Positions 20,011 to 57,978 are shown, counted from the stretch's first letter. The stretch is 64,000 nucleotides of DNA from Candidatus Nealsonbacteria bacterium RIFOXYB1_FULL_40_15 (GCA_001821555.1 MHMM01000010.1:19629-83628), one strand, 5' to 3'. A program made the numbers and translations. The notes: a model not told the origin generated them from the letters alone.

Positions 20011-21004
20011 ATGATTCCTGGGGACCGTTAAATATTATTTGACTTCCAGCAGACTCAAAGCGGAACGGAACATGGAGAAATCCCTGAAGTTTATCCTTTA
20101 CCCTGTCTTGGTTTTCGAGCGGGACAAATAAAAGAAGAAATCCTCCCCCTCCGGCTCCGCAAAGCTTCCCTCCTATAGCTCCCGCCCTTAAAGCCGTTTC
20201 GTAAATCTGGTCTATCTGGCTGTTGGAAATTAAGCTGGTAAGCCCTCTTTTCAAAAGCCAGGATTGATGAAGAAGCTTTCCAAATTCAAAAACATTAAAG
20301 TTATCTTTGCAAAGAATGCCTACGGCCTCGTCAACCATTGATTTCATCATAGACAGCTCGGATTTCTTGGACGGAGTCTTTTGTATCTGCTCTTTTGCGA
20401 TATCGGAGGCGCTTCTGGAAAATCCCGTAAAAAAGAGCATCAAATGGTCCTGCAAGATTTGAAGCTTTTCAGAACTTATTATCACGGGCTGAACGCTGAT
20501 CTCTTCTGCTCCTCCGAAATTTATCCTGTTAAACCCCCCGTAAGCTGCAGCGGTTTGATCTTGAGATCCCACATTTTCTTTTATTATATTCTGCTCTACA
20601 TTTATAGCGTCTAGGGCGAGCTGCCTTTTTGCAGCCATCTTTCCTGAAAGTCCGTAAAGAGAATTCAAAAATCCTACGGTAAAAGCAGAGCTTGACCCTA
20701 TTCCCGACATAGCAGGCAAGTCAGAAGTATGAACCATCTCAACCCCCGAGTCTATATTCATAAATCTCAAACATTCTCTTACGGAGGGATGTTTTATTTC
20801 TGATATTTCAGAAACCTCCTCTCTCGTCGCATATCTTATTCTATATTTATAATTAAAGAAGGGCGGCAGATAACGGCTGCTTATATAGCAGTATTTGTTT
20901 ATCGTCGTGCTCAAAACAGATCCTCCATTTTCCTTATACCAAACAGGATAATCCGTGCCTCCTCCGAAAAAAGATATTCTAAATGGTGTTTTACTTATAA
21001 GCAT
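19976..21004 (-). CDS. hddA: GHMP kinase, D-glycero-alpha-D-manno-heptose-7-phosphate kinase
   Basis: KTPFRISFFGGGTDYP N-terminus and PAMSGIGSSSAFTVG GHMP motif II. Confidence 0.75.
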   Translation of the reverse strand: MLISKTPFRISFFGGGTDYPVWYKENGGSVLSTTINKYCYISSRYLPPFFNYKYRIRYATREEVSEISEIKHPSVRECLRFMNIDSGVEMVHTSDLPAMSGIGSSSAFTVGFLNSLYGLSGKMAAKRQLALDAINVEQNIIKENVGSQDQTAAAYGGFNRINFGGAEEISVQPVIISSEKLQILQDHLMLFFTGFSRSASDIAKEQIQKTPSKKSELSMMKSMVDEAVGILCKDNFNVFEFGKLLHQSWLLKRGLTSLISNSQIDQIYETALRAGAIGGKLCGAGGGGFLLLFVPLENQDRVKDKLQGFLHVPFRFESAGSQIIFNGPQESYEKQDIVFNRG

Positions 21005-21963
21005 TACTTTATTGTCTTATTTTTATACCAGTCAACCATTTTTTTTATGCCTTCTTCTATAGAAGTTCTTGCCTCAAAACCCAAAAGATTTTTCGCCTTG
21101 GCAGGATTTATAAGTCTCTTGGGAATCATTGTCGGCTTTGAAGCGTCAAATGCTATTTTTGCGTCTTCGTAATCAGCAGCTTTTAAGATAGCATTCAGTA
21201 TTTCTTTTATGGTACAGGGTTGGCCCGTTGCAAGATTTACCGGTTCAAAGCTTTCTATTTTCTCCATCGCAAGCATCATTCCTTCAACAAGATCTTCAAT
21301 ATAAATAAAATCTTTGATGTCGTTTCCGTCTCCCCATACCTCTATGGGGTCGTGTCTTTCCACCGCTTTTCTTACCAAAGCCGGTATCACGTGCGATCTT
21401 TCCCAATCAAATTCAGCATAGGGGCCGTAGCTATTAGCCGGCCTGACAACTACTGTTTTCATGGGGTTTTTTACCTTTGTGTACATTTCGCAGAGAACCT
21501 CTGAAAACTGCTTCATCCAGGCGACAAAATAATATTTAGGATAAAGATTTCCGTATTCCATATCTTCTTCCTTTACCGGATCTTCCGAATTAGGATATAC
21601 TGTATTACTGCTTATAAACAAGAACTTTTTTACGCCGGCTTCATAACTTGCCTTGAGCATCAAGCTATTCATCATAATATTGGGTGTAACATGGACTAGG
21701 GGGGTCTTTTCCATCACAGCAGCTCCTGAAGTATTTGCGGCAGCCATAAAAACATAATCCATTCCCTCAACCGCCTTATGGCAGTCTTCTTCTTTGGTAA
21801 AATCGCGCTTAACATACTCTGCCTTAGAATTTCTCAACTGCGGTTCCTGTAGATCAGCAGACCTCACTATGGCTTTATCCTCAAGAAGCTTTATTGCCAG
21901 ATTGGTCCCGATAAATCCGGAGCCACCCGCAACCAAAACTTTTTTATTTTCAAAATATCCCAT
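21004..21963 (-). CDS. NAD-dependent NDP-sugar epimerase/reductase (GDP-fucose-synthase-like SDR)
   Basis: VLVAGGSGFIGTNL. Its stop overlaps the hddA start by 1 nt (TAATG). Confidence 0.7.
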   Translation of the reverse strand: MGYFENKKVLVAGGSGFIGTNLAIKLLEDKAIVRSADLQEPQLRNSKAEYVKRDFTKEEDCHKAVEGMDYVFMAAANTSGAAVMEKTPLVHVTPNIMMNSLMLKASYEAGVKKFLFISSNTVYPNSEDPVKEEDMEYGNLYPKYYFVAWMKQFSEVLCEMYTKVKNPMKTVVVRPANSYGPYAEFDWERSHVIPALVRKAVERHDPIEVWGDGNDIKDFIYIEDLVEGMMLAMEKIESFEPVNLATGQPCTIKEILNAILKAADYEDAKIAFDASKPTMIPKRLINPAKAKNLLGFEARTSIEEGIKKMVDWYKNKTIK

Positions 21964-21969
21964 ATATTT

Positions 21970-22851
21970 TTATCTCCACCTTCCTTTTGGCCCCTGGGTA
22001 ATAGTCAGGAGATGTTTTTCTTCAAAAGGAAAAAATGGCTTTAACCTTTTTTTTGATAATATTCCCATTTCTGGGGCATTATTTAGACAGTGGACTGGAC
22101 CTGAAAATCCAGGATCTTTTGGAACCCAAAAACTGTCCAAAAGCTGCCTGTCCGTAGTAAGCCCGTGCTCCATAAAAAGGCGCGTTTTCTTTTTTCCCTT
22201 TCTAAAAACACTCTGGTAGCACAAAGAAGCTGTCTTATGGATAAATTTATTTTGCATTATTTTGGGCCTTTTTTTAATTATTTTATTCCAAGGATGAAAC
22301 TCTTCAATCCAGGCATCTTTTGAAAGCAAAACTCTTCCTCCTATTTCATACATTCTCATAGCCAAGTCCAAATCCCAAAACATAGACATAAAAGACCTGT
22401 CTATCCCCCCCAGCTCTTTCCACATTTTTTTAGTCATCAGGCCGGCTGCCGGCATAATCGGAGAATTCGGTTCTCTCACCCAATAACGAGCTGATTCTTC
22501 GGCTATGTCTTTTCCAAACAGGACATACCGGCAGGAAAGTATTATTTTTTCATCATTCAGCTCTTTGAAAGCCCGTAAAAGATTGTCCAATGCATGGGGT
22601 GAAAAAACACAGTCGTCCGCAAAAGGCATAATGTACTCTGAAGTCGCGTATCTTGCTGCTATTTCAACGCATTGAACAGGCTTTGTTTCAGAATAGATAA
22701 AATGACAGTTTTCAGGAAGCTTGAATTTGGGAGGGTTGTCTCCGACAAATATTACTTCAAAAGGAACATCATTTTTTTTCAATGACTTGTAGAGTCTCAT
22801 CCAGAGATCAGGCCTCACCGCAGAGCTGAATAGACTTATAACAGGTTTCAT
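21970..22851 (-). CDS. Family X copy 1: uncharacterised divergent GT2/GT-A-like transferase
   Basis: ISLFSSAVRPDLWM, FADDCVF (DxD-like) and FWDLDLAMRMYEIGGRV (GT2-like ED...R...G). C-terminal tail LTITQGPKGRWR. Paralogs at 31633..32547 and 36000..36869. Confidence 0.5.
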   Translation of the reverse strand: MKPVISLFSSAVRPDLWMRLYKSLKKNDVPFEVIFVGDNPPKFKLPENCHFIYSETKPVQCVEIAARYATSEYIMPFADDCVFSPHALDNLLRAFKELNDEKIILSCRYVLFGKDIAEESARYWVREPNSPIMPAAGLMTKKMWKELGGIDRSFMSMFWDLDLAMRMYEIGGRVLLSKDAWIEEFHPWNKIIKKRPKIMQNKFIHKTASLCYQSVFRKGKKKTRLFMEHGLTTDRQLLDSFWVPKDPGFSGPVHCLNNAPEMGILSKKRLKPFFPFEEKHLLTITQGPKGRWR

Positions 22852-23381
22852 ACTACTTTTCCTTCTTCGTCTCTCATTGATATAATTGGGTTTTTAATCG
22901 GCCACCAGATTTTAAACCTGGGATCATCAAATTTATAAGTAAATTGCCGGTTCATCCCCTGGTAGTAGCAAGACTGTTTGTAATTGAAGACCGCGTTATC
23001 GGATAAAACCTGGTAAGCATGCCCGTGCTTAGGAGGGATTAAAAGCTGTCTTCCGTTTTCTCTGGTAAGTATAAAGTTCTGCCACTTTCCGAAATTAGGA
23101 GAGCTTTCGTCGCAGTTAACGACGACTATATAGAATTTCCCGAACAGACAGGTGACCAGCTTCCAGGTTCTATCGTCGCCGTGTATTCCTCTCAAAACAT
23201 TCTTTGTTGACCAGGCATAATCATCTTCAAGGAACTGAACATCTTCGCCCAGTTCTTTTTTTATGGCTTCTTCATAATCCTGCTTATGGTAAAGCTGGGT
23301 ATATGTGCCCCTGTGGTCTTCAAAGTGGTTAAGCTGAAACATCAGCACCCTTTCCAGCCCAGTTCTTGACGCTTGGATCAT
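22848..23381 (-). CDS. RmlC-like cupin (NDP-4-keto-sugar 3,5-epimerase or ketoisomerase)
   Basis: FEDHRGTYTQLY, VLRGIHGD and PPKHGHAYQVLSDNAVFNYK. Confidence 0.7.
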   Translation of the reverse strand: MIQASRTGLERVLMFQLNHFEDHRGTYTQLYHKQDYEEAIKKELGEDVQFLEDDYAWSTKNVLRGIHGDDRTWKLVTCLFGKFYIVVVNCDESSPNFGKWQNFILTRENGRQLLIPPKHGHAYQVLSDNAVFNYKQSCYYQGMNRQFTYKFDDPRFKIWWPIKNPIISMRDEEGKVV

Positions 23382-24367
23382 ATGTTTTTAAAATAATTCT
23401 TTCTTTTTAAATATTCGTCCTGGTGCTGGACAAACCAGTCCCAGGTTTCCTTAAGCCCCTGGACTAAAGGGGTGGAAGGATCGTATCCGATTGTTTCTCT
23501 AGCTAAAGAAATATCCATTACTCTTCTTGGAAAACCGGAAGGCTTTGTGCTATCAAATACATACTTAAAATCTAAAAAACTATTCAAAGATTCCACCAAT
23601 TCCTTGACTGAATATCCCTTGCCGGATCCTAAATTTACAAATCCTCCCTTGGTTCCGTGGTAGAGAGCCAGTATTATTCCTTCAGCGACATCCCTACTGT
23701 AAGCAAAATCCCTTATGGCTTTGCCGTCCCCCCAGACAACGACCGGATTTTCTTTATGAAGAATCCTGTACATCAAAGAAGGTATTACCATTGCGTTTTC
23801 AGGGTCAAAATTGTCTCCCGGCCCGTAGACATTGCATGGCCTCACAACGGCAAAATTCTCCATTCCATACTGTATCTTATACGAAGCAACCTGAAGTTCA
23901 GCCATTCTTTTCGCCCAGCCGGGAAACATATCCATAGGAGGACCCTCTAAGTTTTCGTCTTCTTTAAAAACTTCCGCAGAGCTGTAAGCTCCTATGGAAC
24001 TTGTGTATACTGCCTTTTCCACATTATTTATCCTGCAGGCCTCAAGCATATTGGTATTCATCATCAGCAAAGGAACGAAAAAGCTTGCCGGCATTTTTTT
24101 GGTAACCTCTATGGATCCTTTTATGCCCGAAATATGGAATACGAAATCCATCCCCTTCGTAGCTTCCTTGCAAAAAGAGAGGTCAGTCAAATCTCCGTAA
24201 ACATGCTCTGCTCTGTCATCTACGTTTATTCTGTCCAAAGAGACGATTTTAACAATTCCTCCCTGTTCCGCCAAAATATCAACCACCTGCCTTCCTATGA
24301 GGCCCGTGCCCCCTGTCACTAGGACTTTCTTTCCTCTAAAACTGTCTAAAATATCTTTTTGTATCAT
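23378..24367 (-). CDS. NAD-dependent NDP-sugar epimerase/reductase (extended SDR)
   Basis: VLVTGGTGLIGRQV Rossmann motif; overall length and pattern of an extended SDR. Confidence 0.75.
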   Translation of the reverse strand: MIQKDILDSFRGKKVLVTGGTGLIGRQVVDILAEQGGIVKIVSLDRINVDDRAEHVYGDLTDLSFCKEATKGMDFVFHISGIKGSIEVTKKMPASFFVPLLMMNTNMLEACRINNVEKAVYTSSIGAYSSAEVFKEDENLEGPPMDMFPGWAKRMAELQVASYKIQYGMENFAVVRPCNVYGPGDNFDPENAMVIPSLMYRILHKENPVVVWGDGKAIRDFAYSRDVAEGIILALYHGTKGGFVNLGSGKGYSVKELVESLNSFLDFKYVFDSTKPSGFPRRVMDISLARETIGYDPSTPLVQGLKETWDWFVQHQDEYLKRKNYFKNI

Positions 24368-26262
24368 ATCTTTTTTAATTGGTTTATTTTAAAATTTGAA
24401 ATAGTAAGCCTCGATTTTACAAAATCCACAGGATTCATTTCTTCTGTTCCTTGAGACTCTGCAAAAGATTCTTTCTTATAAACAACGCCCGAAGAATCAA
24501 AGTATTCAGGAATGCTATATCCAAACCTGATCTTTTCCTTTTCTCTTTTTTCCCAAGAAGGGATGGACGAGCTCTGGTATTTGAACACTTCTTTTAAAAT
24601 GTCTTCCTGAAACCTGATATTTCTCATTTTAAGATATTTCTCTACAAGAACCAACAGTTCTTGGTAAAAAGGATCTTTTTCTTTTATCAATAAAAGCAAC
24701 GCTGCCTCATGTGGCTCAAAAAGCAGGTTTTCTGTGAAATCAAGGGTAATCAGATTCATTCTTCCGTCCAGAACAGCCTGCCTGCTTTCGTTTATCACCC
24801 CTATTGCTTTTTTTACTGCAGGAAAAGAATCTTTTTCTGAAATAATATATTCTATAAGGGCTGTAATGCTTACCGAAAATTCAGATTTCAAGTAGTTGAA
24901 GATAAAAAAGCAAAGCCGGAAATTATACATGGCAAGATAAGCATAAACGAAGGTAAAAGCTCTTTTCCAATCTTCAATGGGCAAGGTTGAATTCGCCACC
25001 ACTATTTCCTCTGTTTCTGATATCCCCGAATTCAAATTCCATCTATGCCTCGGAATCCCTATGGGGCAGGTTTTTGTTTTAATCCCGTATCTTTTTACAT
25101 ATTCGGGCTCCGCCATCTTGGTAGCGTCCAGAAGCCTCAAAAGATAAACTACCAGAAAATGATTCCTGCGCCTGTCTAGGCATTTCTCAAGAGTCGCAAG
25201 AATCGTCTCGTAGCTGTCTTCGGGAAGCCCGAGAATAAGCTCCGTGTAAGTGCTGATTCCCCTTTCAGCAGACTCTTTTTTCAGCTCTTCAAATTCTAAA
25301 AAGTCCATATTGGTTCTTCCTATGGCTTCAAGAGTAGCGGGATTTAAGCTCTGCATGCTCATAGTAAGCTGGGTATGCACGCCTCCTTCTTTCAGCTTTT
25401 CAACTATTTGAAGCATTTTTTTATTTGAATTTTTGAGCCAGTTTATAATAAAATACTTGGGATACCCGGTTTTTCTTCCGGATTCGGCTATCATATCCAC
25501 TATTTCCAAATCCTGGGGAAGAATTCCGAAGTTTGCGTCGGTTCCGAATATATACTCCATTTTGTTTTTAGCCATCCACTCAAGCTCTTTCCCCAGCTTC
25601 TCTTTTTTAAAGGGCATAATTCTAGAAAATTTGGAATTTCCCTGAACGCAGTAGGCGCAAGTGTATGGACATCCCCTATTAGTCTCCCATAAGGCGCCTG
25701 TTATTTTATCTGAATAACAAGCCATGATTTGGTCAAAAGTCCCGTCCAGAAAGGGTGAACCCAGCTCGTCCAAATTTCTTATATATTCCGGCTCTTTGGT
25801 TGAGATTCCTTCCTTGGATCTGAACGAAATTCCAGAAATTGAAGAAATTTCTTTTTTTCCTATCCGGCACAAAAGAATTTCAGAAAAAGGCCATTCTCCC
25901 ATGCCATGGACTGCAATATCTATAAAAGGATAGTCTTCAAAGAAAGATTTTATCAGCTCTTTGTGGTTCGGAATCATCGGGCCTCCGAAAATAACCAGTC
26001 CTTTAGGGTTTGTATTTTTAAAATGCCTGGCTAGCTCCAGACTGTGCCTGAAATTCCAGCTATAGGCAGAAAATGCAGACACATCCGCCTTGGGACAATC
26101 TATATCTTTCCTTAATATTTGGATTTCAAAATCATAAGCATCCGCTATTTCAGGAATTTTCCTGGCATAAGAAACAAGCATCGCAGCCGAAAGCGGAAGG
26201 AAATTCTTCCATGAAGCAGACTGTATCTGATAAACCACGGCTTTTAATTTTTCTTTTTCCAT
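24364..26262 (-). CDS. B12-binding-domain radical SAM enzyme (class B, methyltransferase-like)
   Basis: 632 aa. N-terminal cobalamin-binding-like Rossmann region, then ETNRGCPYTCAYCVQG (CxxxCxxC). Confidence 0.8.
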   Translation of the reverse strand: MEKEKLKAVVYQIQSASWKNFLPLSAAMLVSYARKIPEIADAYDFEIQILRKDIDCPKADVSAFSAYSWNFRHSLELARHFKNTNPKGLVIFGGPMIPNHKELIKSFFEDYPFIDIAVHGMGEWPFSEILLCRIGKKEISSISGISFRSKEGISTKEPEYIRNLDELGSPFLDGTFDQIMACYSDKITGALWETNRGCPYTCAYCVQGNSKFSRIMPFKKEKLGKELEWMAKNKMEYIFGTDANFGILPQDLEIVDMIAESGRKTGYPKYFIINWLKNSNKKMLQIVEKLKEGGVHTQLTMSMQSLNPATLEAIGRTNMDFLEFEELKKESAERGISTYTELILGLPEDSYETILATLEKCLDRRRNHFLVVYLLRLLDATKMAEPEYVKRYGIKTKTCPIGIPRHRWNLNSGISETEEIVVANSTLPIEDWKRAFTFVYAYLAMYNFRLCFFIFNYLKSEFSVSITALIEYIISEKDSFPAVKKAIGVINESRQAVLDGRMNLITLDFTENLLFEPHEAALLLLIKEKDPFYQELLVLVEKYLKMRNIRFQEDILKEVFKYQSSSIPSWEKREKEKIRFGYSIPEYFDSSGVVYKKESFAESQGTEEMNPVDFVKSRLTISNFKINQLKKI

Positions 26263-28040
26263 ACCATATATGTAAATCCTTCCATAAAAAGACTCCCGAA
26301 AAACAATCTTTTTACTTTCAATATCTCTATTTTCCCCCGGCTTTCAAGCTCTCTTAACCTAGGGAGATATCCTTCTGTATATCCTCTTTTTCTGTGGAAT
26401 TTTACCGCAAGATAGTCAACAAGATTATTCTCGTCATAAACTTCAACGGTCGGCTCTATGTTAATGCACAGATCAAAGGGTTGTTTGAGAAGATATTCCA
26501 AAAAGGGTTCAAAATCGCTTGCAACCTGCTCCAAGGTTCCTGAAGTAAAAACGCAGCTGCCCGGTTTTATTCTCAAACTGTAATCTGGCTTTCTCATATT
26601 AAACAGAATTCCTTCCATTTTCCAGCCATATGCTTTTGCCAGCCTGTTAATCAGCTCTGGAGAAGAGGGCACAAAATCCATTCCGTAAAGATGTTTCTCG
26701 GGAAACATTTTTGCCATTGGAACTATGTTGTATCCTGATCCCGTTCCAAAATCATATATATTGTCGTAATTTTTCAGGTACTTTTCAAAAAGCCAGGCGC
26801 GGAAAACTGAAAAATAGTCGTTTTCAAAATTATGATCTGCAGGCATTATATACTGCTGGTTAAGCCTTATCGCCTGGTTGGGCCTGATGAACTTAGGCGT
26901 TATACTTGACAGGTCCTGGCTGTTTTTAAAGCTTTCCAAATTTTCATTCCAGCCCTTCTCCCACTGGCCTGTTCTTTCCGGAGCCCCTATGATTTGCGTA
27001 TCGTTTTCTATTTTAAATAATATATGTTTTACGAGCTCGTCTTTCTCTTCCCCCTCAATAATCCTGTACCTAAAATCTGTCTCTTCTATGATTTTAACAG
27101 CAGACGGAGAAAGCTCTTCGGCTCCGAACGACTTCTTAAAATCTTCGACAGAAAGTTCCTTGTCAAAGGGCTTTGCGTTTTTGCTTGAAATCTTCAGTTT
27201 TATTCTAAGCCATGCCCTTGTTCCTGTTTCAAAAATCTGCCTGTCCTCTAGGGCAACTTTATTGAAGCTGATATTCCTGCTATTATCCGCCATTATTTCT
27301 GACAAGACAGATCCTATTCCGCCCGTCTTGCAGTTCTCTTCCATAGTTATTATCTGGTCGGAGCTGTCTATAATCTCAAGAATCTTCTTCTCATTCAAAG
27401 GATTAATCCTCAATAAATCAACAACTCCCATCCCTGATGTTTTTAAAGCTTCGTGGGTCATAAAACCCGTGCTTATAATATTAGTTTTCTCTAATTTTCT
27501 AATAATTTTTAACCCCGAGGAAAGATCTTCCCCCTCCTTATATATTTCACCTCCAAATCCTTTGTCCAATCTCACATAAGTGGGACCCTCGGCCATATAC
27601 GAAGCTTGAGCTGAAAATTTAGCCGAGTACGCATCGGATGGATTAAAAATCGCTATTTCAGGAAGAGTTCTCATTACAGCTATGTCAGAAACCGCGTGGT
27701 GGGTCGGACCGTCAAATTCAAAAGACAACCCGGCCCCCGCTCCCACAATAACGACAGGCAGTTTCATGCTGCAAATATTGGATTTTATATTCTCGTAGCA
27801 TCTCATTGCGATAAAGGGTATGAGGCAATAAATGAAAACTTTTTTTCCGGACAAAGCAAGGCCTGTAGCCAGAGAAACCATATTCTGCTCTGCCACTCCC
27901 GCGTTCACAAACCTGGAGGGAAAATCTCTCTTATATTTTTCCAGGCTAAAAGCATCGGCGTCAGCAGTTATAAAAACAACATTCTTGTTATTTTTGGCTA
28001 TTTGATAAACCTCTTCAAAAAAAGCATCTCTTATATCCAT
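26244..28040 (-). CDS. Fusion: transketolase C-terminal (pyrimidine-binding) subunit + family Y methyltransferase-like domain (Y1)
   Basis: The N-terminal half aligns to 34281..35207 (NAGVAEQNMVSLATGLALSGKKVFIY, GPTHHAVSDIAVMR). The C-terminal 310 aa aligns to 33329..34276 (GAPERTGQWEKGWNENL, DFGTGSGYN). The junction lies near 27165-27180. ATG 28040 (MDIRDAFFEEVY) is preferred to 28094. Confidence 0.75.
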   Translation of the reverse strand: MDIRDAFFEEVYQIAKNNKNVVFITADADAFSLEKYKRDFPSRFVNAGVAEQNMVSLATGLALSGKKVFIYCLIPFIAMRCYENIKSNICSMKLPVVIVGAGAGLSFEFDGPTHHAVSDIAVMRTLPEIAIFNPSDAYSAKFSAQASYMAEGPTYVRLDKGFGGEIYKEGEDLSSGLKIIRKLEKTNIISTGFMTHEALKTSGMGVVDLLRINPLNEKKILEIIDSSDQIITMEENCKTGGIGSVLSEIMADNSRNISFNKVALEDRQIFETGTRAWLRIKLKISSKNAKPFDKELSVEDFKKSFGAEELSPSAVKIIEETDFRYRIIEGEEKDELVKHILFKIENDTQIIGAPERTGQWEKGWNENLESFKNSQDLSSITPKFIRPNQAIRLNQQYIMPADHNFENDYFSVFRAWLFEKYLKNYDNIYDFGTGSGYNIVPMAKMFPEKHLYGMDFVPSSPELINRLAKAYGWKMEGILFNMRKPDYSLRIKPGSCVFTSGTLEQVASDFEPFLEYLLKQPFDLCINIEPTVEVYDENNLVDYLAVKFHRKRGYTEGYLPRLRELESRGKIEILKVKRLFFGSLFMEGFTYMVWKKKN

Positions 28041-28813
28041 AACTCTTTTTTGGCAGATTCCAGATCCTCCCGTTTTAGCGCGGAACTGTGCCATTTTAAA
28101 TTATTTTCCATGAAAGAAACTCCCTTTCCTTTTATAGTATCAGCTATTATCATCAAGGGATGATCTGGCTTTTCAGAAAGAGCTTTTAACAGCTCCTTGA
28201 AAGAATGACCGTCCACTGTCTTGCACTCCCACCCTGAAGCCCTTATTTTTTCTTCAAGCTTATCCTCTATTTTTTCTGTGACCGAAAGTCTGTTCCTGTC
28301 TATTATTCCAACCAAGTTTTTGACCTGCTTTTTCCCTGCGAACATAATTGATTCCCAAATGGATCCTTCTTCGCATTCTCCGTCTCCGACTAAAGCAAAC
28401 GATCTGTAGTTGTTGCCGTCTATTTCCGCAGATAAAGCCATTCCGCAGGCAACCCCTATGGCATGCCCCAAGGATCCTGTATTGTATTCCACTCCCGGAG
28501 TATTTAGATTAAGCTGAACGCCCAAGCTTGATCCATTTTTCCCGTAGCTTTGGATTCTGGAAGGTTCAAAAAATCCAATGTCAGCAAGAATATGATATAA
28601 GGCCAAAGAAGCATGGCCTTTTCCCAAAACAAACCTGTCCCTGCCGTCCCATTTTGGATTTTTAGGATCTACTTTCAAAATATTCCCGTAGTAAAGAGCA
28701 ACTAAAATATCCGTGCAGGAGAATATCCCGCCTATATGCTCCCCCTTTTTTGTCCGGGCAGCAGTTTCTAAAACTTGACTTCTGACCCATCGGGCTTTTT
28801 CTTCCAATGTCAT
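28031..28813 (-). CDS. Transketolase N-terminal (TPP-binding) subunit
   Basis: GHIGGIFSCTDILVALYY, RDRFVLGKGHASLALY and LVGDGECEEGSIWES. Confidence 0.85.
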   Translation of the reverse strand: MTLEEKARWVRSQVLETAARTKKGEHIGGIFSCTDILVALYYGNILKVDPKNPKWDGRDRFVLGKGHASLALYHILADIGFFEPSRIQSYGKNGSSLGVQLNLNTPGVEYNTGSLGHAIGVACGMALSAEIDGNNYRSFALVGDGECEEGSIWESIMFAGKKQVKNLVGIIDRNRLSVTEKIEDKLEEKIRASGWECKTVDGHSFKELLKALSEKPDHPLMIIADTIKGKGVSFMENNLKWHSSALKREDLESAKKELWI

Positions 28814-30462
28814 ATTTGCTTTATAGGTTCTATTATCTTCTGGCAGTTGTCCGAAACAACCTCTATAAATACAGGACCTTTTTTATTTAATATTTCTGTT
28901 ATTTTGCCGTCAACCTCTTCATAATTTTGGATGGACTCGTAAGGAAGTTCAAAAGCATCTGCTATTTTTTTAAAATTAAGGCCTTCGGCCTGGCCGGACC
29001 CCACGTGCCTTCCTCCGCAAAGGGCATCCTGGGTGTTTCTTATAGAAACATACCCTCCGTTGTTTATGACAAACAACTTTATATCCAGCCCGCAGGAAGA
29101 CATTGTTTTGAGCTCTTGTATATTCAGTTCAAGAGAACCGTCTCCTGTAATCGCAAGTATTTGTCTAGAAGGATCGGCACTTGCCGATCCTATGGCTAAG
29201 GGAATGGCAAGCCCCATAGAAGCAAAAGCTCCCGATGTTATTTCCCTCTGCCCTTTTTCAAATCTCAAAGCCTGGCCTGTTACATAATAGGAAGAGCCAG
29301 CATCCGAAACAAAAACACTATTTTCTTTTGACAAGGCATCCAACCGGCTTACAAAATAGTAAAGATCTATCGGGTTTCTGGCAGGGCCAGCCAGAGGATA
29401 GCTTTCTTTATAACCTTGGCAATCCTTTAGCCAGTCCGAAGCATCAACTTTTACATCTTCTTTCAAAAGGCCTTCAATAAATTCCTTTACATCCGAATTT
29501 ATTTGGAGGTCAACTCTAATGCTGGGCTTTTTTAGTTCTGCTTCATCTATATCCACCATTATAATCTTGGCGGATTCAGAAAGAGCGTCGCTCACGAAAG
29601 GAACAGCCAGTCTGCTCCCCAGGCTCAAAATCAAATCGCTCTTGCTCATTATAAGTTTTGTATATCTTAATCCTTTCATCCCTCCATGCCCCAAATTATA
29701 CCTGTAAGAAAAAGGAAGCATATCCTGGCCAAGCCTTGATAGAATAACTGGGATTTTAAGCTTCTCTATCAAATTTTTGAATTCATCCAAGGATTTTGCA
29801 ATCCTTATCCCCTGGCCGGCTATTATCAAGGGCCTTTTTGATTCAGCCAAAAGCATTACTGCTTCTTTCAACTTATTTTTATCCAAATCTTTTTCGGAAG
29901 CTTCAGGATTCCAACCCTCAAGCATTTTTTCGTCTATAATGCTGGACTGCACATCCAAAGGAATATCCAGCCACACAGGCCCAGGCCTTCCGGATTTTGC
30001 AAGATAAACTGCTTTTTCTAAATGATATCGTATGCTATCAGGGTCCTCCACCATTTGAGCATATTTCGTCAAAGAATTAACGATCGGAATTATATCAATT
30101 TCCTGGATTCCTAAGCTTCTCAAGTTTTTGATATTAGCTTTGTGGCAGGTATGCTTCTTATCTACTTGGCCTGAAATAACAAGAACAGGAGCAGAATCCA
30201 CCCATGCTTCGCTTAACCCAGAAACAGCATTTGTCCCGCCTGGACCTGAAGTAATGCAAGCAACTCCTAATTTTCCTGTCAATCTGGCATAGGATTCGGC
30301 CATCATAGGAGCTGTAGCTTCGTTTCTTACGCAGATAAAATCCAAATTCTTTCCGGCTATGCTGTCGTCAAGATAAACAGACCCGCTTCCCGAAAGCATA
30401 AAAATCTTTTTGACTCCCTGCCTGGCTATAAAATCAGCTATATAATCTGAAACTTTCATCAT
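28810..30462 (-). CDS. Thiamine-diphosphate enzyme of the acetolactate-synthase/YerE family
   Basis: GPGGTNAVSGLSEAWVDSAPVLVISGQV (TPP_enzyme_N) and ITGDGSLELNIQELKT...VINNGGY (TPP-binding GDG...NN). Confidence 0.8.
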   Translation of the reverse strand: MMKVSDYIADFIARQGVKKIFMLSGSGSVYLDDSIAGKNLDFICVRNEATAPMMAESYARLTGKLGVACITSGPGGTNAVSGLSEAWVDSAPVLVISGQVDKKHTCHKANIKNLRSLGIQEIDIIPIVNSLTKYAQMVEDPDSIRYHLEKAVYLAKSGRPGPVWLDIPLDVQSSIIDEKMLEGWNPEASEKDLDKNKLKEAVMLLAESKRPLIIAGQGIRIAKSLDEFKNLIEKLKIPVILSRLGQDMLPFSYRYNLGHGGMKGLRYTKLIMSKSDLILSLGSRLAVPFVSDALSESAKIIMVDIDEAELKKPSIRVDLQINSDVKEFIEGLLKEDVKVDASDWLKDCQGYKESYPLAGPARNPIDLYYFVSRLDALSKENSVFVSDAGSSYYVTGQALRFEKGQREITSGAFASMGLAIPLAIGSASADPSRQILAITGDGSLELNIQELKTMSSCGLDIKLFVINNGGYVSIRNTQDALCGGRHVGSGQAEGLNFKKIADAFELPYESIQNYEEVDGKITEILNKKGPVFIEVVSDNCQKIIEPIKQI

Positions 30463-31628
30463 ATCTTTTTATGAAAATCTTCCATTTTGCTTAAAGCTTC
30501 TTCTATCTCCTTTTTTTCTGTACTTGCATAGCAGAACCTTGCATATCCTTCCCCGAAACTGCCGAAACAATTTCCCGAAACAGCTGCTATGCCTGAATTC
30601 TCCAACAGTTCTTCACAATATCTGGCCGAATCCATCCCCGTTCCCTTTATATTGCAAAAAGCGTAGAAAGCTCCTTCGGGCATTACGCACGAAAGGCCTT
30701 TTATCCTGTTCAGTCCTCCTATCAGAAGATTTCTTCTTTCATTTAATTCCTGAATTCTTTTTCCTAAAAAACTGTGATCTCCTTCAAGGGCCGCCTTGCC
30801 TCCCAACTGGGTAAAGGCAGGCAAGCAGGACATTATGGTTTCCAGAAGAAGGCCCATCTTTCTTATAAATGATTCTGGACCTATGGCGAACCCCAGCCTC
30901 CAGCCGGACATAGAATAAATCTTTGAAAGACTTCCCAAGACGATGGTTCTTTCTTTGCATTTGTCCCTCAAACTCGGAGAAAAATGATTTTTCCCTCCAT
31001 AAATTATTTTTGAATAAACTTCATCCGAGAGAAGATAGACATCCGAATGCTCTGCAATTTCGGCCGTTTTAAAAACTTCTTCTTCTGTCATAACAGAGCC
31101 CGTCGGATTCTGGGGCGTATTCATGATTATGAGGCGGGTCTTGTCTGTAATCTTTTCTACTATATCATCAGGATTCATCCTAAAGCTGTTTTCTTCTTTC
31201 AGCCGGACAGGGACAGGAACAAACCCATTGTATTTTATAACCGAGTAATAAGTGGGGAAGCCCGGGCCGGGAAGAATTATCTCCTCTCCCGGATCTGCTG
31301 CGCATCTTGCAGTAAAGTCAATCAAAGCATTGGCCGGGCAGATCAAAACCTGATTCAGGTCCGGCTTGAAGCCCAGGTCTCTTTCTGCATAATTTGCCAC
31401 TGCCTCTCTTAATTCTCTTAACCCCATTGAATTTGTATAATGGGTGAGCTTTTGATCCAGGGCTTTTTTTGCCGCCTCAAGAACATGATCCGGAGAATCA
31501 AAATTAGGATCCCCGAGTTCAAAATGAATAACCTTTTTCCCCTCCCTTTCCATATCTTGGGCTCTGGATAAAAGTCCAAACATGGGCTGGCCTAAAAGAT
31601 TTTCTGCTATTTTTGATAAATGTTTCAT
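30459..31628 (-). CDS. PLP-dependent aminotransferase, class I/II (AspAT fold)
   Basis: MNTPQNPTGSV and SLSKIYSMSGWRLGF (PLP lysine). ATG 31628 (MKHLSKIAENL) is preferred to 31688, which overlaps the upstream gene by 56 nt. Confidence 0.8.
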   Translation of the reverse strand: MKHLSKIAENLLGQPMFGLLSRAQDMEREGKKVIHFELGDPNFDSPDHVLEAAKKALDQKLTHYTNSMGLRELREAVANYAERDLGFKPDLNQVLICPANALIDFTARCAADPGEEIILPGPGFPTYYSVIKYNGFVPVPVRLKEENSFRMNPDDIVEKITDKTRLIIMNTPQNPTGSVMTEEEVFKTAEIAEHSDVYLLSDEVYSKIIYGGKNHFSPSLRDKCKERTIVLGSLSKIYSMSGWRLGFAIGPESFIRKMGLLLETIMSCLPAFTQLGGKAALEGDHSFLGKRIQELNERRNLLIGGLNRIKGLSCVMPEGAFYAFCNIKGTGMDSARYCEELLENSGIAAVSGNCFGSFGEGYARFCYASTEKKEIEEALSKMEDFHKKI

Positions 31629-32547: not shown

Positions 32548-32549
32548 AA

Positions 32550-34280: not shown

Positions 34281-35207
34281 TTATATGATATTTTTAATTT
34301 GTTTTATTATGCTTTCTGCGTCCAGGCCTTCTTCTTTACACATATATCTTTTGTCGCCGTAGCAGAAACATTCTTTGTCTTTGATTCCAAACCTTTTAAA
34401 TTTTGCAGTGATCCCATAATCGCACAATAAGTCGCAAATAGAAGTTCCGACTCCTCCGTAAGACAAGTGATCCTCTATAGCTACTACTATTCTGGCTTTC
34501 TTGAGAATTTCTGATAACAAGGCTTCGTTAAGCGGCTTAATCCTGTACAGATCAATCAGTCCTGCGTTGATTTTATCCGCTACTTCCAAAGCAGTATGCG
34601 TCATGGATCCTGAAGAGATAATTATTGTGTCTTCTCCCTCTCTTAACAGGGAAAATCCTGCGTCAAAATTTTCTTTTTCGTACAAAAAAGGAGAAACTCC
34701 TTTGTCAAAACGCAAGTAAGAAGGTCCTGAAATCCTGCAGCATAAATCTACAAATGAAGACGCCTGAACAGGATCTGAAGCAGATAAAATAGTCATGCCG
34801 GGAATTCCTTTCATTATGGAAATATCCTGGATTGAATGATGAGTAGGGCCGTCTGATTCGTAAGAATACCCTCCTCCTATTCCGATTATTGAAACAGGAA
34901 GATTCATTATTCCTATGTCAATTTTTATCTGCTCGTAGCATCTTGCCGTAATAAAGCATGCTATGGCATGAACAAACACTTTTTTCCCGCCCAAAGCAAG
35001 ACCGGAGGCTACGCTTATCAAATTTTGCTCTGCAGGCCCCGCGTTTATTATCTGATCGGGTATGTTTTCCTTAAACTTCTCAAAGCTTTTGGCGCCCTGA
35101 TCCCCCAAAAGCAGGATTATATTCTTGTCTTTCAGGGCAACAGAATAAAGACTGTCAAAAACAGCATCTCTCATGTCCTGCTCTTTAATTGCAGTTTTAT
35201 TTTCCAT
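34281..35207 (-). CDS. Transketolase C-terminal (pyrimidine-binding) subunit
   Basis: NAGPAEQNLISVASGLALGGKKVFVH and GPTHHSIQDISIMKGIPG. Confidence 0.85.
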   Translation of the reverse strand: MENKTAIKEQDMRDAVFDSLYSVALKDKNIILLLGDQGAKSFEKFKENIPDQIINAGPAEQNLISVASGLALGGKKVFVHAIACFITARCYEQIKIDIGIMNLPVSIIGIGGGYSYESDGPTHHSIQDISIMKGIPGMTILSASDPVQASSFVDLCCRISGPSYLRFDKGVSPFLYEKENFDAGFSLLREGEDTIIISSGSMTHTALEVADKINAGLIDLYRIKPLNEALLSEILKKARIVVAIEDHLSYGGVGTSICDLLCDYGITAKFKRFGIKDKECFCYGDKRYMCKEEGLDAESIIKQIKNII

Positions 35208-36009
35208 ATTCTAATTCAATCCTGGCTTTTTCCAAAAGCTCTCCTTTTGGAACGCCATGATGCCAATGAAAATCATTTTCCATAAAAGAAACTCCCTTGC
35301 CTTTTATCGTATTTGCAACAATGGCCAGGGGCCTTCCGCTATTTCTAGAATGAATATCCGATAAAACCGAAAATATTTCGTTAAAGTTATGCCCTGATAT
35401 TTCTCTTGTATCCCATCCAAAGCCTTCCCATTTTTCTTTCAAGGGAGATATTCCTGAATATTCTTGGGTTGGACAAGTGGCCCCCACTTTGTTGTTGTCT
35501 ATTATGGCTACAAGGTTATCAAGATTTCTGGCTGAAGCGAAGTTTGCCGCCTCCCAAACAGATCCTTCGCAACATTCTCCGTCTCCCAGCAGAACAAGGA
35601 CGGAAAAAGGCTTTTTATCAAGCTTTGCTGAAAGAGCAAGGCCCGATCCTATGCCTAAACCGTGTCCCAAAGATCCTGACGAAACCTCTACTCCCGGAAT
35701 GCGGTGGTCCGGATGCCCTCCCAGTATAGAGCCGTTTCTGCCATAATTTTTAAGCTTTTCCGGGCTGAAGAATCCCAGATCGGAAAGCACCGAATATAGG
35801 GTAAGGCAGGCATGCCCTTTGCTTAAAATAAACCTGTCCCTTCCTTCCATATCGGGATTTTCAGGAGAAAAATTCATTATTTTTCCGTAATACAATGCTG
35901 TTATAATCTCAACGCAGGAAAAAGCTCCCCCCAAATGGGCCTTTCCGGCTAAAACCGCCGTTTCCAAAATTTGCCTGCGGATCCAATTTGATTTTTCCTT
36001 TAAGTCCAT
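35197..36009 (-). CDS. Transketolase N-terminal (TPP-binding) subunit
   Basis: AHLGGAFSCVEIITALYY, RDRFILSKGHACLTLY and LLGDGECCEGSVWEA. Confidence 0.85.
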   Translation of the reverse strand: MDLKEKSNWIRRQILETAVLAGKAHLGGAFSCVEIITALYYGKIMNFSPENPDMEGRDRFILSKGHACLTLYSVLSDLGFFSPEKLKNYGRNGSILGGHPDHRIPGVEVSSGSLGHGLGIGSGLALSAKLDKKPFSVLVLLGDGECCEGSVWEAANFASARNLDNLVAIIDNNKVGATCPTQEYSGISPLKEKWEGFGWDTREISGHNFNEIFSVLSDIHSRNSGRPLAIVANTIKGKGVSFMENDFHWHHGVPKGELLEKARIELEYGK

Positions 36010-38543: not shown

Positions 38544-39641
38544 TTAAAGTTTTTTTCTAATATATGCCGGAATCGGCTTTTGTCCATTATGCGCGATAAC
38601 CCAAGCCCAATAGCGTATCCTTCCCTCCACTAAAGAATACCCTCCCTTTCCGTCCGATATTAGTCTTACCGGCTTTATATCTTCTTCAGGATGTTCCGAA
38701 AAATACAGGGCTAGGTCAGAAGGGCTTGGAATAAAACCCAGTTTATTTTCCAGGGCCTCGCTTTTTGTCCTGTAAACCATCCTGTTGCTCTGGCCATCGG
38801 GGCTTACCTCTATCTTATCTACCGGCGCATAGGTTGGTTTTCTGCTATAAAGAGAGCTTATCGTTTCAAAATCTTCTTTTGAAATTTTAAATCCAGAAGC
38901 TCCGGCATTTTCTTCAATATGCTTTTCAGAAACTGTGGGAATGGCGATTACCGTAGGATGCATAGTTAGCCAGTTCAGGGCTATCTGGGCAGAAGTCCTA
39001 TCGTATTTTTCAGCTATTGCATTAAAAACCTTTGTTTTTTCTTCGTCATCGTCCGGTATAATTCTCCCCTGGTCCAAAGGGCTGCACGCTATTGTTATTA
39101 TCTTTTTTTCTTCGCAATAAGGAAGAATCTTGTCTTCAATAAAATGATCAAATAAATTGTATTCTGTCTGGAAAGAAGAAATTTCTCCGAGGATTTCTGC
39201 TTCTTTCAGCTGTCCAAGATAAAAGTTGCCCACCCCTATATATCTTATTTTCCCTTGCTCTTTTAGCATTTTAAGCCCCTCCATGGTTTCTTCCATATTT
39301 ACTTTAGGATTGTGCCAATGGAACTGATATATATCTATATAATCTGTTTGGAGTCTTTTCAGACTTCCTTCGGCAGCTTTTATAACATCTTTATATGAAC
39401 TATGATCTGAAGCAAATTTACTGCAGATAATAACCTTCTCCCTCAATCCCTTGATTGCTTTTCCGACAATTATCTCTGAATTCCCCTTATCGTAGCTTTC
39501 TGCCGTATCAATTAAATTCATGCCAAGGACTATCCCTTTTTTAAGCGTAGCAACATGGCTTTCATTCCAGGGATAATCTCCCATGCCCATTCCTACAGCC
39601 GGAAAATTTAGATTAAAATGGTCCCTTAAATTTGTTTTCAT
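38544..39641 (-). CDS. Aldo/keto reductase fused to a C-terminal ParB/sulfiredoxin-like domain
   Basis: AKR region: DTAESYDKGNSEIIVGKAI and YIDIYQFHW. C-terminal ~95 aa: PVDKIEVSPDGQSNR...IKPVRLISDGKGGYSLVEGRIRYWAWVIAHNGQKPIPAYI, which follows the ParB N-terminal domain pattern (xDGxxR..A..). Confidence 0.65.
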   Translation of the reverse strand: MKTNLRDHFNLNFPAVGMGMGDYPWNESHVATLKKGIVLGMNLIDTAESYDKGNSEIIVGKAIKGLREKVIICSKFASDHSSYKDVIKAAEGSLKRLQTDYIDIYQFHWHNPKVNMEETMEGLKMLKEQGKIRYIGVGNFYLGQLKEAEILGEISSFQTEYNLFDHFIEDKILPYCEEKKIITIACSPLDQGRIIPDDDEEKTKVFNAIAEKYDRTSAQIALNWLTMHPTVIAIPTVSEKHIEENAGASGFKISKEDFETISSLYSRKPTYAPVDKIEVSPDGQSNRMVYRTKSEALENKLGFIPSPSDLALYFSEHPEEDIKPVRLISDGKGGYSLVEGRIRYWAWVIAHNGQKPIPAYIRKKL

Positions 39642-40653
39642 AGCTGTAAAATTCTTCTTCAGAAAGATCAGCCGGGGAAAGGCCCAGCATTTCTTCGGCC
39701 GTTCTTATTATTTTTTCTGCGTTGGGATAAAACTCGTTTTCAAGATGTCTCGCCGTAGGACAATGAATGTGGGAAAATCCTATTCTTTTTACGGGAAACT
39801 TAAGCTTCCCAAAGCATTTTTCTGAAACCCTAGCAGCTACTTCAGAACCAAATCCGCAGTCAATCCAGTCATTGTCGGCTACAATGCATCTTCCGGTTTT
39901 TTCAACCGATCTAATAATCATTTCGTCGTTAAAAGGAGCTATGGTTCTAGGATCTATAATTTCCGCTTCTATGCCTCTTTTTTTAAGAACTTCTGCCGCT
40001 TTTAATGCTTCTACATTCATCCAAGAAACAGCGACTATGGTAAGATCTTTCCCCTCTCTCAATATATTAGGAAGGCCTATTGGTATTTCAAATAAATTTT
40101 CGGGCACCTCTTCTTCCTGATAGTAAAGCCATCTGTGTTCCATTACTATAACCGGATTATCGTCCCTTATGGCCGAAACAAGGAGGCCTTTGGCGTCTTT
40201 GGCCGTGGTAGGAAGAACAACTTTTAGCCCTGGAATATGAGCAAAAACAGAATACATGCTTTTTGAATGCTGGAATCCCTGCCCCCATCCTCTTCCTATA
40301 ACAGCCCTTATAGTGAGAGGGACTTTCATTTTCCCTGCAGATCCGTATCTCCAGCTTGAAATAATATTAGCCAACTGATTCATCGCCAGAAGCATAAAAT
40401 CAACCCTTTCATGAATGTGCACCGGCCTCAATCCGTTTAAAGAAGCGCCCAGTCCAAAGCCAGTCATTGCATCTTCTGAAATCGGGGTGTCAAAACATCT
40501 TTCCTCTCCGAACTTCTCCACCAGATTCTCGGTCGTTCCAAATATTCTTTTCACGTCAGGAACCCCGATTCCATAAACAAAAACACTCGGGTCTCTTTCC
40601 ATCTCCTGAATCAAAGCTTCGTTTATCGCTTGTTTATAGCTTATCTTTCTCAT
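39613..40653 (-). CDS. 2-oxoacid dehydrogenase E1 component beta subunit-like (AviB2-like)
   Basis: ISYKQAINEALIQEMERDPSVFVYG and FDTPISEDAMTGFGLGASLNG. ATG 40653 preferred. Confidence 0.85.
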   Translation of the reverse strand: MRKISYKQAINEALIQEMERDPSVFVYGIGVPDVKRIFGTTENLVEKFGEERCFDTPISEDAMTGFGLGASLNGLRPVHIHERVDFMLLAMNQLANIISSWRYGSAGKMKVPLTIRAVIGRGWGQGFQHSKSMYSVFAHIPGLKVVLPTTAKDAKGLLVSAIRDDNPVIVMEHRWLYYQEEEVPENLFEIPIGLPNILREGKDLTIVAVSWMNVEALKAAEVLKKRGIEAEIIDPRTIAPFNDEMIIRSVEKTGRCIVADNDWIDCGFGSEVAARVSEKCFGKLKFPVKRIGFSHIHCPTARHLENEFYPNAEKIIRTAEEMLGLSPADLSEEEFYSYENKFKGPF

Positions 40654-57849: not shown

Positions 57850-57978
57850 TTTATTAACCTTTAATTTTTCCTGCCTCAATCTTTAATAAGGTTGTGGCAA
57901 GAAATTTAATTTATGTTCGACCTTTGTTTGTAAATACTTAAAACCCCCGTTAGGGGAGGTTTTTCAAAAAATAATGTC

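Follow-up and report, generated by a model that had tools for sequence, protein, structure and literature searches.

In the biosynthesis of yersiniose A in Yersinia pseudotuberculosis, YerE, a thiamine diphosphate (ThDP)-dependent enzyme of the acetolactate synthase (ALS) superfamily encoded in a glycan cluster, decarboxylates the 2-oxo acid pyruvate and adds the product to the C4 carbonyl of a nucleoside diphosphate (NDP)-4-keto-deoxy sugar, and the reductase YerF follows; no aminotransferase is mentioned for this system (PMC9306805, PMC12247030). In a published 'unifying scheme', a neighbouring aldolase provides the YerE-like enzyme with its 2-oxo-acid donor, as in the systems ErwI/ErwJ-ErwE (erwiniose), MMAR_2331-MMAR_2332 (caryophyllose) and MygI-MygE (gastriose), and transamination appears only as an in vitro route to donors (PMC9306805). 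Here we analysed a 64,000-nucleotide stretch of DNA (MHMM01000010.1, 19629-83628; hereafter, the window) from Candidatus Nealsonbacteria bacterium RIFOXYB1_FULL_40_15, in which a YerE-like gene is paired with a gene for a class-I aminotransferase of the aspartate aminotransferase (AspAT) fold. The genome, from the Candidate Phyla Radiation (CPR)/Patescibacteria, stems from groundwater metagenomes, and the window's contig has been recovered in 13 assemblies.

The arrangement resembles the ErwE, MMAR_2332 and MygE systems in that a gene next to the YerE-like gene would supply a special 2-oxo-acid donor. The supplier differs: it is a pyruvate aldolase in those systems (PMC9306805), and we propose a pyridoxal phosphate-dependent aminotransferase acting on an amino acid in the window. 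We consider it reasonably probable that the aminotransferase starts from an amino acid and produces the 2-oxo-acid donor with which the YerE-like enzyme branches an NDP-4-keto-heptose, the two forming a donor-supply and branching module. The original prediction had expected unusual chemistry at this locus; what we propose extends the published scheme for acyl-branched sugars (PMC9306805) and is no new kind of chemistry. We found no description of a coupling between an aminotransferase and a YerE-like enzyme in the accessible literature, which did not cover Krug et al. 2024, a work that may list such clusters.

Two other ThDP superfamilies, the split-gene transketolases (miharamycin and amipurimycin) and the E1 alpha/beta enzymes of the alphaKADH2 type (secondary-metabolite sugars), have been proposed or shown to branch keto sugars. 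Split-gene transketolases have been reported only from Streptomycetes, and transketolases and alphaKADH2 mainly from antibiotic pathways (PMC12247030). Both kinds stand in the window operon together with the YerE-like gene; here, by contrast, they occur in surface-glycan loci of CPR bacteria, Omnitrophota, Margulisiibacteriota, Chloroflexota, Planctomycetota and Syntrophobacteraceae.

The ThDP enzyme falls in a separate YerE-like clade

The coordinates originally given for the two open reading frames (ORFs) were exact (Table 1). The 550-residue ThDP protein matched Pfam TPP_enzyme_N, TPP_enzyme_M and TPP_enzyme_C (E = 1e-30, 1e-27 and 2e-31, respectively). The cofactor motif GDG...NN, noted in the original prediction, is present as G440-D441-G442...N467-N468 and, together with the cofactor-activating Glu48, is invariant in 22 homologues. 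The top match in the PDB, and thus the closest solved structure, was JanthE (8RPH; 331 bits, E = 8e-98, aligned over residues 2-537), compared with 250 bits for the best ALS. JanthE, from Janthinobacterium sp. HH01, is a YerE-like enzyme that joins 2-oxo acids to ketones by carboligation; its donor range is broad and its physiological substrates are unknown (PMC12188165). It differs from the window protein in having CDG instead of GDG in the ThDP motif and a C-terminal tail about 60 residues longer, which includes K567.

We built a neighbour-joining tree of 109 sequences, comprising those of 80 genome loci, metagenome homologues, JanthE and Escherichia coli IlvB, IlvI, Gcl and PoxB; the scan for YerE-like homologues had found at least 595. 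JanthE was the sole characterised YerE-like anchor in our comparisons, in which the YerE, ErwE and MMAR_2332 sequences were not included. The glycan-cluster ThDP enzymes, including that of the window, split from the E. coli proteins in 100 out of 100 bootstraps. Within them, the window protein belongs to a distinct clade (100/100 bootstraps), sister to the canonical YerE-like clade that holds JanthE. Proteins of the window clade have 550-590 residues, compared with about 600 in the canonical clade. Measured against YerE, whose own sequence was not compared, the window enzyme is shorter (550 versus about 600 residues), is without the C-terminal extension, and lies in an NDP-heptose context with transketolases at its flanks, not in a cytidine diphosphate (CDP)-3,6-dideoxyhexose context.

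The two clades keep different company. Canonical-clade genes lie mostly beside RfbF-RfbG-RfbH, the CDP-3,6-dideoxy-4-keto-hexose route and the route to yersiniose (PMC9306805), a context they share with YerE. The window clade is found in a single cassette type, with a 4,6-dehydratase, E1 alpha/beta or a transketolase, the ThDP gene and the split transketolase halves; its further genes encode an aldo/keto reductase or a short-chain dehydrogenase/reductase (SDR), a methyltransferase, Fcl-like SDRs, an RmlC-like epimerase, and a GHMP kinase with a nucleotidyltransferase. In the window itself, the operon carries the genes of an NDP-4-keto-deoxy sugar: a 4,6-dehydratase, an RmlC-like epimerase, Fcl-like reductases and NDP-heptose activation.

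Could the two genes be a housekeeping ALS and an aspartate aminotransferase that lie in a glycan locus by chance? The best NCBIfam names are indeed ALS large subunit and aspartate aminotransferase. However, all equivalog cut-offs were missed: TIGR00118, the best of the ALS models, scored 345.4 bits against a cut-off of 538.35 bits, and the others fell further below theirs. As the original prediction had noted, ilvC, ilvD and an ALS small-subunit gene were absent, here among the Pfam-scanned ORFs (at least 100 residues, tiling 417-57879, minus weak overlapping ones; 57.9-64 kb lies outside the scan). Phylogenetic placement, which the original prediction had put forward as a check and which we ran against ALS, Gcl, PoxB and JanthE, gave no clustering with housekeeping ALS, and the separation from E. 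coli ALS had 100% bootstrap support. The pairing with the aminotransferase is, moreover, kept across phyla. This explanation is effectively refuted, and the match to JanthE, the missed cut-offs, the tree and the nucleotide-sugar context support the assignment of the protein as YerE-like rather than as a housekeeping ALS.

The closest actinomycete relatives of the window enzyme (44-45% identity) come from Streptomyces sp. NRRL F-6131 (locus L010) and Kitasatospora misakiensis (L011). In both, the ThDP gene directly follows the split transketolase (around 8300-11650); its neighbours in L010 encode a PhyH-domain protein, an MFS transporter and a zinc-dependent alcohol dehydrogenase, and the region may be a secondary-metabolite sugar cluster. 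In one canonical subclade (L020, L025, L028, L037 and L044), the ThDP ORFs reach about 855-864 residues through an N-terminal extension of about 255 residues. The extension has no counterpart in Pfam, or else it represents a separate upstream gene that the ORF caller failed to recognise and joined to the ThDP ORF.

The aminotransferase represents its own subfamily

The original prediction had placed the partner protein in the AspAT fold and not among DegT-type enzymes. Pfam Aminotran_1_2 covered residues 32-381 (E = 9.8e-65), compared with only E = 8e-06 for DegT over residues 109-202 (94 residues), with no full-length match. The sequence includes SLSKIYSMSGWRLGF. The best PDB matches were 1DJU and 1GD9, the Pyrococcus aromatic aminotransferase (ArAT)/AspAT (254 bits, 38% identity). 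In an alignment of 13 orthologues, N174, D202, Y205, K236, R244 and R364 are invariant; we take these to be equivalent to AspAT N194, D222, Y225, K258, R266 and R386, whose spacing they match. Retention of this catalytic set, including the alpha-carboxylate arginine R364, indicates amino-acid and 2-oxo-acid substrates. True bacterial AspATs carry GGKQ or GAKQ, with the distal-carboxylate lysine, whereas Pyrococcus ArAT has GANQ and the window protein PANA; with this lysine replaced, the protein is probably not a dedicated aspartate aminotransferase.

The orthologues have several motifs that generic AspATs are missing: GQPMF near the N-terminus, THY, CPANA, GFPTY and SCxPxFxQ. The window protein is 59-61% identical to the aminotransferases of sister cassettes and 43-49% identical to those of CDP-dideoxyhexose cassettes. 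Its ORF is open to 31688. The first 15 residues counted from 31628 (MKHLSKIAENLLGQP...) are kept in all orthologues and carry the GQPMF motif, so the start at 31628, as originally placed, is correct; public calls of the protein (P0124, 374 residues) start 15 codons late and drop the motif. For the ThDP protein, a database protein in the same 90%-identity cluster has 549 residues compared with 550. The cluster-mates of the two window proteins at this identity are deposited as OGZ27152.1 and OGZ27153.1.

Three candidate assignments were set aside. A 287-residue aminotransferase (P0127, L004) looked like a truncated pseudogene, which was ruled out by a scaffold gap of ten Ns in one assembly. GntC, which acts on gamma-hydroxy-arginine, was the top NCBIfam match, but the score lay below the cut-off, and the GntC structure 8FFT reached only 89 bits. 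The aminotransferases of L053 and L029 are without GQPMF, share 34-38% identity and belong to another subfamily; they were not counted as orthologues.

The gene pair is conserved across phyla

In the window, the stop codon (TGA) of the aminotransferase gene and the start codon (ATG) of the ThDP gene overlap as ATGA over 4 nt (30459-30462), in agreement with the translational coupling originally claimed. The ThDP gene in turn overlaps the start of the Transketolase_N gene by 4 nt (28810-28813) and thus stands directly upstream of a split transketolase, as predicted. The order ThDP gene, transketolase N half, transketolase C half is kept in every locus of the window clade with downstream sequence; in the Streptomycetaceae loci L010 and L011, the two halves precede the ThDP gene.

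We surveyed the pairing from both sides, using 80 genome loci plus metagenome contigs anchored on the ThDP gene and 80 metagenome loci anchored on the aminotransferase. In the first survey, an orthologous aminotransferase gene (43-61% identity) lay immediately upstream of the ThDP gene, often overlapping it, in the window and twelve other loci. These come from an unclassified bacterium (L007), Sedimenticola (L018), a Methanobacteriaceae archaeon (L022), Patescibacteria (L023), the cultured Methylophilaceae isolate LSUCC0401, which has a complete genome (L024), Marinamargulisbacteria (L033), a spirochaete symbiont (L062), Lentisphaerae (L069), Opitutales (L078), Margulisiibacteriota (L087), Syntrophobacteraceae (L088) and Omnitrophota (L090). 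In the aminotransferase-anchored survey, the YerE-like gene came next in 5 out of 5 loci where an aminotransferase with GQP[ML]F had enough flanking sequence (L097, L099, L101, L102 and L134); in two loci limited by contig ends, RfbH precedes such an aminotransferase. None of the approximately 70 generic aminotransferases without GQP[ML]F in this metagenome survey had a YerE-like neighbour. In all, a GQPMF aminotransferase gene directly upstream of YerE-like genes was found in about 20 loci from more than ten phyla. Since it recurs in many independent loci, the pairing is more than chance; the two genes make up a conserved module that has an aminotransferase subfamily to itself, and not a one-off.

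The pair occurs in two pathways, the heptose/transketolase cassettes and the RfbF-RfbG-RfbH CDP-3,6-dideoxyhexose cassettes. An example of the latter is L024 of LSUCC0401 (CP103442), with the gene order RfbF, RfbG, RfbH, aminotransferase, ThDP gene, SDR. RfbH is missing in the window and transketolase is missing in canonical cassettes, so the YerE-like enzyme is the common partner across both. A functional tie of the aminotransferase to the RfbH/E1 3-dehydrase was rejected because the window and sister cassettes without RfbH keep the pair.

Another candidate partner is the split transketolase. In six soil and peat metagenome loci (L111, L133, L137, L140, L146 and L149), a generic AspAT-like aminotransferase gene without GQPMF has a split transketolase 0.1-1.7 kb downstream; this adjacency may be a separate association. 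Hydroxypyruvate is the classical irreversible donor of transketolases. Together, these points would fit an explanation in which the aminotransferase would serve the transketolase, for example by converting serine to hydroxypyruvate as a ketol donor, with the YerE-like gene adjacent only incidentally. However, GQPMF aminotransferases adjoin YerE-like genes in transketolase-free cassettes, and the transketolase stays in heptose cassettes that have no aminotransferase (L008, L091, L092, L179 and L180). We regard this explanation as very unlikely.

Donor supply by the aminotransferase also competes with an Ehrlich-type arrangement. The combination of an aminotransferase with a decarboxylase of the ALS family is well established: in AruH (arginine transaminase)/AruI and in Ehrlich pathways, the 2-oxo acid formed by a class-I aminotransferase passes to an adjacent ThDP enzyme. 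By analogy, the window's ThDP enzyme would only decarboxylate to an aldehyde, which the split transketolase would extend, and keto sugars would be branched by other enzymes; the conserved adjacency of the ThDP gene and both transketolase halves in the heptose clade fits this idea. However, the same pair is present in transketolase-free, otherwise textbook yersiniose cassettes (L024, L033 and L078). AruH/AruI and Ehrlich pairs are catabolic and release aldehydes, whereas the window's ThDP protein belongs to a glycan operon and groups with YerE-like carboligases, not decarboxylases. It scored 228.7 bits on the AruI-type model NF005712 (5-guanidino-2-oxopentanoate decarboxylase), which has a cut-off of 500. 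We therefore consider the Ehrlich-type arrangement distinctly improbable.

Other genes occupying the aminotransferase slot

Where the aminotransferase is absent, other genes can stand beside the YerE-like gene. A DmpF/DmpG aldolase pair adjoins the ThDP gene in 10 loci, namely the sister cassette L092, which has no aminotransferase, and nine canonical loci; the DmpF and DmpG genes of L092 both clear their equivalog cut-offs. Such a pair corresponds to ErwI/ErwJ, the donor supply demonstrated for ErwE (PMC9306805). In two heptose cassettes (L091, 9025-9975; L180, 6992-7963), the gene immediately preceding the YerE-like gene belongs to the PanB family (3-methyl-2-oxobutanoate hydroxymethyltransferase), and that of L091 clears the panB equivalog cut-off. 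Its presence in this slot implies ketopantoate or a similar gamma-hydroxy-2-oxo acid as the branch donor. A sugar-acid dehydratase of the UxaA/GarD type occupies the slot in L014 and L177. Aldolase, PanB and dehydratase all make 2-oxo acids, and an aminotransferase and an aldolase pair were never seen in one locus among approximately 85 loci.

A recurring insert was also observed upstream of YerE-like genes (L177, 3199-7663; L178, 5334-7980). It encodes a cytidylyltransferase-like protein, a phosphatase resembling IMPase and a dehydrogenase of the PdxA family, to which a UxaA/GarD-type dehydratase is added in some cases. The version in L014 (5834-10004) has a UxaA-like protein and a member of the mannitol-dehydrogenase family.

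The original prediction had left two roles open, donor supply and amination of a side-chain carbonyl; comparative genomics favours the former. If the aminotransferase instead acted after the carboligase, aminating the new acyl branch, the product would be a 1-aminoalkyl-branched sugar. Transaminases are said to modify acetyl branches in some secondary-metabolite sugars (PMC9306805), and the tight coupling of the two genes would suit consecutive steps in either order. Nevertheless, the enzyme retains R364 and resembles an ordinary amino-acid aminotransferase, whereas an acyl branch from a simple donor would have no alpha-carboxylate. The slot alternates with makers of 2-oxo acids that modify no sugars. 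In aminotransferase-type loci, the gene after the ThDP gene, at the YerF position, continues to be an extended-SDR reductase, which suggests that the branch carbonyl is probably reduced rather than aminated. On account of the slot alternation, R364 and the persisting reductases, donor supply is favoured, and we judge amination of the branch to be unlikely.

A proposed route to an acyl-branched heptose

Donor supply builds on observed gene order, family membership, conserved pairing and alternation with other 2-oxo-acid-making genes. The catalytic steps set out here are all predicted from sequence, as are the acceptor and the amino acid. The aminotransferase would convert a free L-amino acid, with a 2-oxo-acid co-substrate, to the matching 2-oxo acid. 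The YerE-like enzyme would decarboxylate this acid to an acyl-anion equivalent and add it to the C4 carbonyl of an NDP-6-deoxy-4-keto-heptose, an acceptor that may come from the operon's GmhA, kinase, phosphatase and nucleotidyltransferase together with the intein-bearing 4,6-dehydratase. The product would be a 4-C-acyl tertiary alcohol, whose branch carbonyl would then be reduced by an operon reductase, and the split transketolases, E1 alpha/beta, methyltransferases and the B12 radical-SAM enzyme might elaborate the sugar further. The original prediction had the branching enzyme type right and spoke of a two-carbon branch; the branch need not be C2, as known donors range from C2 to C8 (PMC12247030). 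Some of the 2-oxo acids in this range that characterised YerE-like enzymes accept were produced by in vitro transamination (PMC9306805, PMC12247030).

A dedicated supply would best suit a scarce 2-oxo acid, and ErwE-type enzymes prefer gamma-hydroxy-2-oxo acids, so serine and homoserine rank highest. With low confidence, we suggest a hydroxylated donor amino acid, either L-serine (giving hydroxypyruvate) or L-homoserine (giving 4-hydroxy-2-oxobutanoate).

Several points weigh against donor supply. The functions assigned to the aminotransferase subfamily and the ThDP clade are predictions from sequence. Common amino acids correspond to 2-oxo acids that cells contain anyway as metabolites, and a dedicated aminotransferase is therefore explained only if the donor is unusual. 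About 1.6 co-occurrences of aminotransferase and aldolase would be expected by chance among the approximately 85 loci, so their mutual exclusivity is not statistically decisive. Support for monophyly of the aminotransferase-associated ThDP proteins is only moderate, with bootstraps of 44% (heptose clade) and 80% (canonical core). We detected no donor-pocket signature common to both aminotransferase-associated groups relative to plain YerE-like enzymes; the canonical aminotransferase clade alone has its own markers (F30, C74 and K60), position 30 being H, F or Y according to group. In addition, two proteins predicted from their tree position to be accompanied by an aminotransferase (P0038 and P0098) instead had the cytidylyltransferase-like/IMPase-like/PdxA-family trio, and characterised relatives of the PdxA-family gene yield ketones, not 2-oxo acids.

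Two other proteins had been predicted to be without an aminotransferase, and both were, with PanB at P0109 and nothing at P0103. With two out of four blind predictions wrong, we rejected tree position as an unreliable predictor of the donor supplier.

The surrounding operon encodes four ThDP systems

The pair lies in a single long minus-strand glycan operon that spans about 400-46,000 of the window, with a Wzm/Wzt ABC exporter at its start and many glycosyltransferases and a GT4-family initiating transferase at its end. The features that bear on the proposed route are listed in Table 1.

Table 1. Coordinates of the gene pair and of other sugar-modifying features of the window operon
Feature	Coordinates	Strand	Basis
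YerE-like ThDP-dependent carboligase (ALS/decarboxylase superfamily), 550 aa	28810..30462	-	Pfam, PDB match, tree
Class-I (AspAT-fold) aminotransferase, 389 aa, GQPMF subfamily	30459..31628	-	Pfam Aminotran_1_2
Split transketolase, N-terminal (ThDP-binding) half	28031..28813	-	Pfam Transketolase_N, E = 4e-34
Split transketolase, C-terminal half, with pyrimidine-binding and C domains and a fused methyltransferase-like domain of about 300 aa	26244..28094	-	Pfam
B12-binding radical-SAM enzyme, KedN5-like C-methyltransferase	24364..26262	-	Pfam Radical_SAM and B12-binding
NDP-sugar 4,6-dehydratase with a LAGLIDADG intein inside	41578..43803	-	Pfam GDP_Man_Dehyd (two pieces), LAGLIDADG_3, Intein_splicing
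Pyruvate-dehydrogenase-E1-like alpha and beta subunits (alphaKADH2-type ThDP enzyme)	39613..41602	-	Pfam E1_dh (E = 3e-46), Transket_pyr, Transketolase_C
Second split transketolase, N and C halves	34281..36009	-	Pfam
NDP-heptose activation: HddA-like kinase, GmhA isomerase, nucleotidyltransferase fused to GmhB-type phosphatase	18179..21004	-	
Two Fcl-like extended SDRs, RmlC-like epimerase, GT2-like protein	21004..24367	-	

The sugar is most likely an NDP-heptose, because GmhA clears the TIGR00441 cut-off, HddA is the top match of the kinase, and the nucleotidyltransferase is fused to a phosphatase that matches GmhB models. The 4,6-dehydratase is proposed to yield the 4-keto acceptor. Its NCBIfam matches to dTDP-glucose and GDP-mannose dehydratases fall in two separate stretches; Intein_splicing covers approximately residues 284-598 of the ORF, and LAGLIDADG is a homing-endonuclease domain. 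The 5' end of this ORF is probably over-extended, since it overlaps the Wzt gene. The Fcl-like SDRs are candidate reductases for the 4-keto group or the branch carbonyl. For the E1-like subunits, the NCBIfam matches to pyruvate dehydrogenase E1 alpha and beta lie below the cut-offs, as does that of the radical-SAM enzyme to NF033712 (E = 3e-78). The C-terminal transketolase half matched Transket_pyr (E = 2e-28), Transketolase_C (E = 6e-09) and Methyltransf_25 (E = 2.5e-05).

Four ThDP systems that form C-C bonds, from three superfamilies, thus stand in one operon (39613-41602, 34281-36009, 28810-30462 and 26244-28813); together with the KedN5-like methyltransferase, they suggest a heavily C-modified heptose. 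Three paralogous GT2-like proteins of about 290-300 residues are encoded on the minus strand (21970-22851, 31633-32589 and 36000-36908), with near-identical N-termini (ISLFSSAVRPELWM). Three paralogous methyltransferase-like units of about 310 residues are also present on this strand (33329-34276, 36862-37788 and the C-terminal half of 26244-28094), the last being the transketolase fusion. The organisation of the operon is modular. In its distal part (6800-10265, minus strand), genes for an asparagine-synthase-like amidotransferase, a polysaccharide-deacetylase-like protein and a formyltransferase-domain protein point to N-acyl or amide modification of another sugar.

Elsewhere in the window, two tandem proteins of about 740 residues (49815-54274, plus strand) combine a Wzy_C/O-antigen-ligase-like domain with TPR repeats and adjoin a 1141-residue protein with a peptidoglycan-binding domain (54454-57879, minus strand). 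Patescibacteria are generally held to be without an outer membrane; the three proteins may serve the glycan as ligases and as its target or anchor.

Implications for acyl-branched sugars

Two features of this system are new: the separate YerE-like clade, found in NDP-heptose cassettes with split transketolases and E1 alpha/beta enzymes, and the coupling to a dedicated aminotransferase subfamily, which most likely acts as donor supplier. All three ThDP superfamilies known to branch keto sugars co-occur in surface-glycan operons of uncultivated phyla. Because Methylophilaceae LSUCC0401 is cultured and has a complete genome, the idea is directly testable.

Surface determinants of immunological importance include acyl-branched sugars, yersiniose, erwiniose and caryophyllose among them. 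If donor supply holds, an aminotransferase-fed route would be a second general entry point to such sugars beside the aldolase, and a family of undescribed sugars with amino-acid-derived branches would be predicted. The enzymes would also be ready-made aminotransferase/ThDP cascades for chiral tertiary alcohols, an active goal of biocatalysis, in which a narrow range of donors has been named as a limitation (PMC12188165, PMC12247030). More tentatively, at somewhat less than even chances, the GQPMF subfamily as a whole may make donors from amino acids for YerE-like carboligases, so that amino-acid skeletons are grafted as C-branches onto NDP-4-keto sugars in more than ten phyla and at least one archaeon. 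In Nealsonbacteria, the pair, combined with two split transketolases, E1 alpha/beta and a B12 radical-SAM methyltransferase, would then give a multiply C-branched or chain-extended heptose unseen in characterised glycans.

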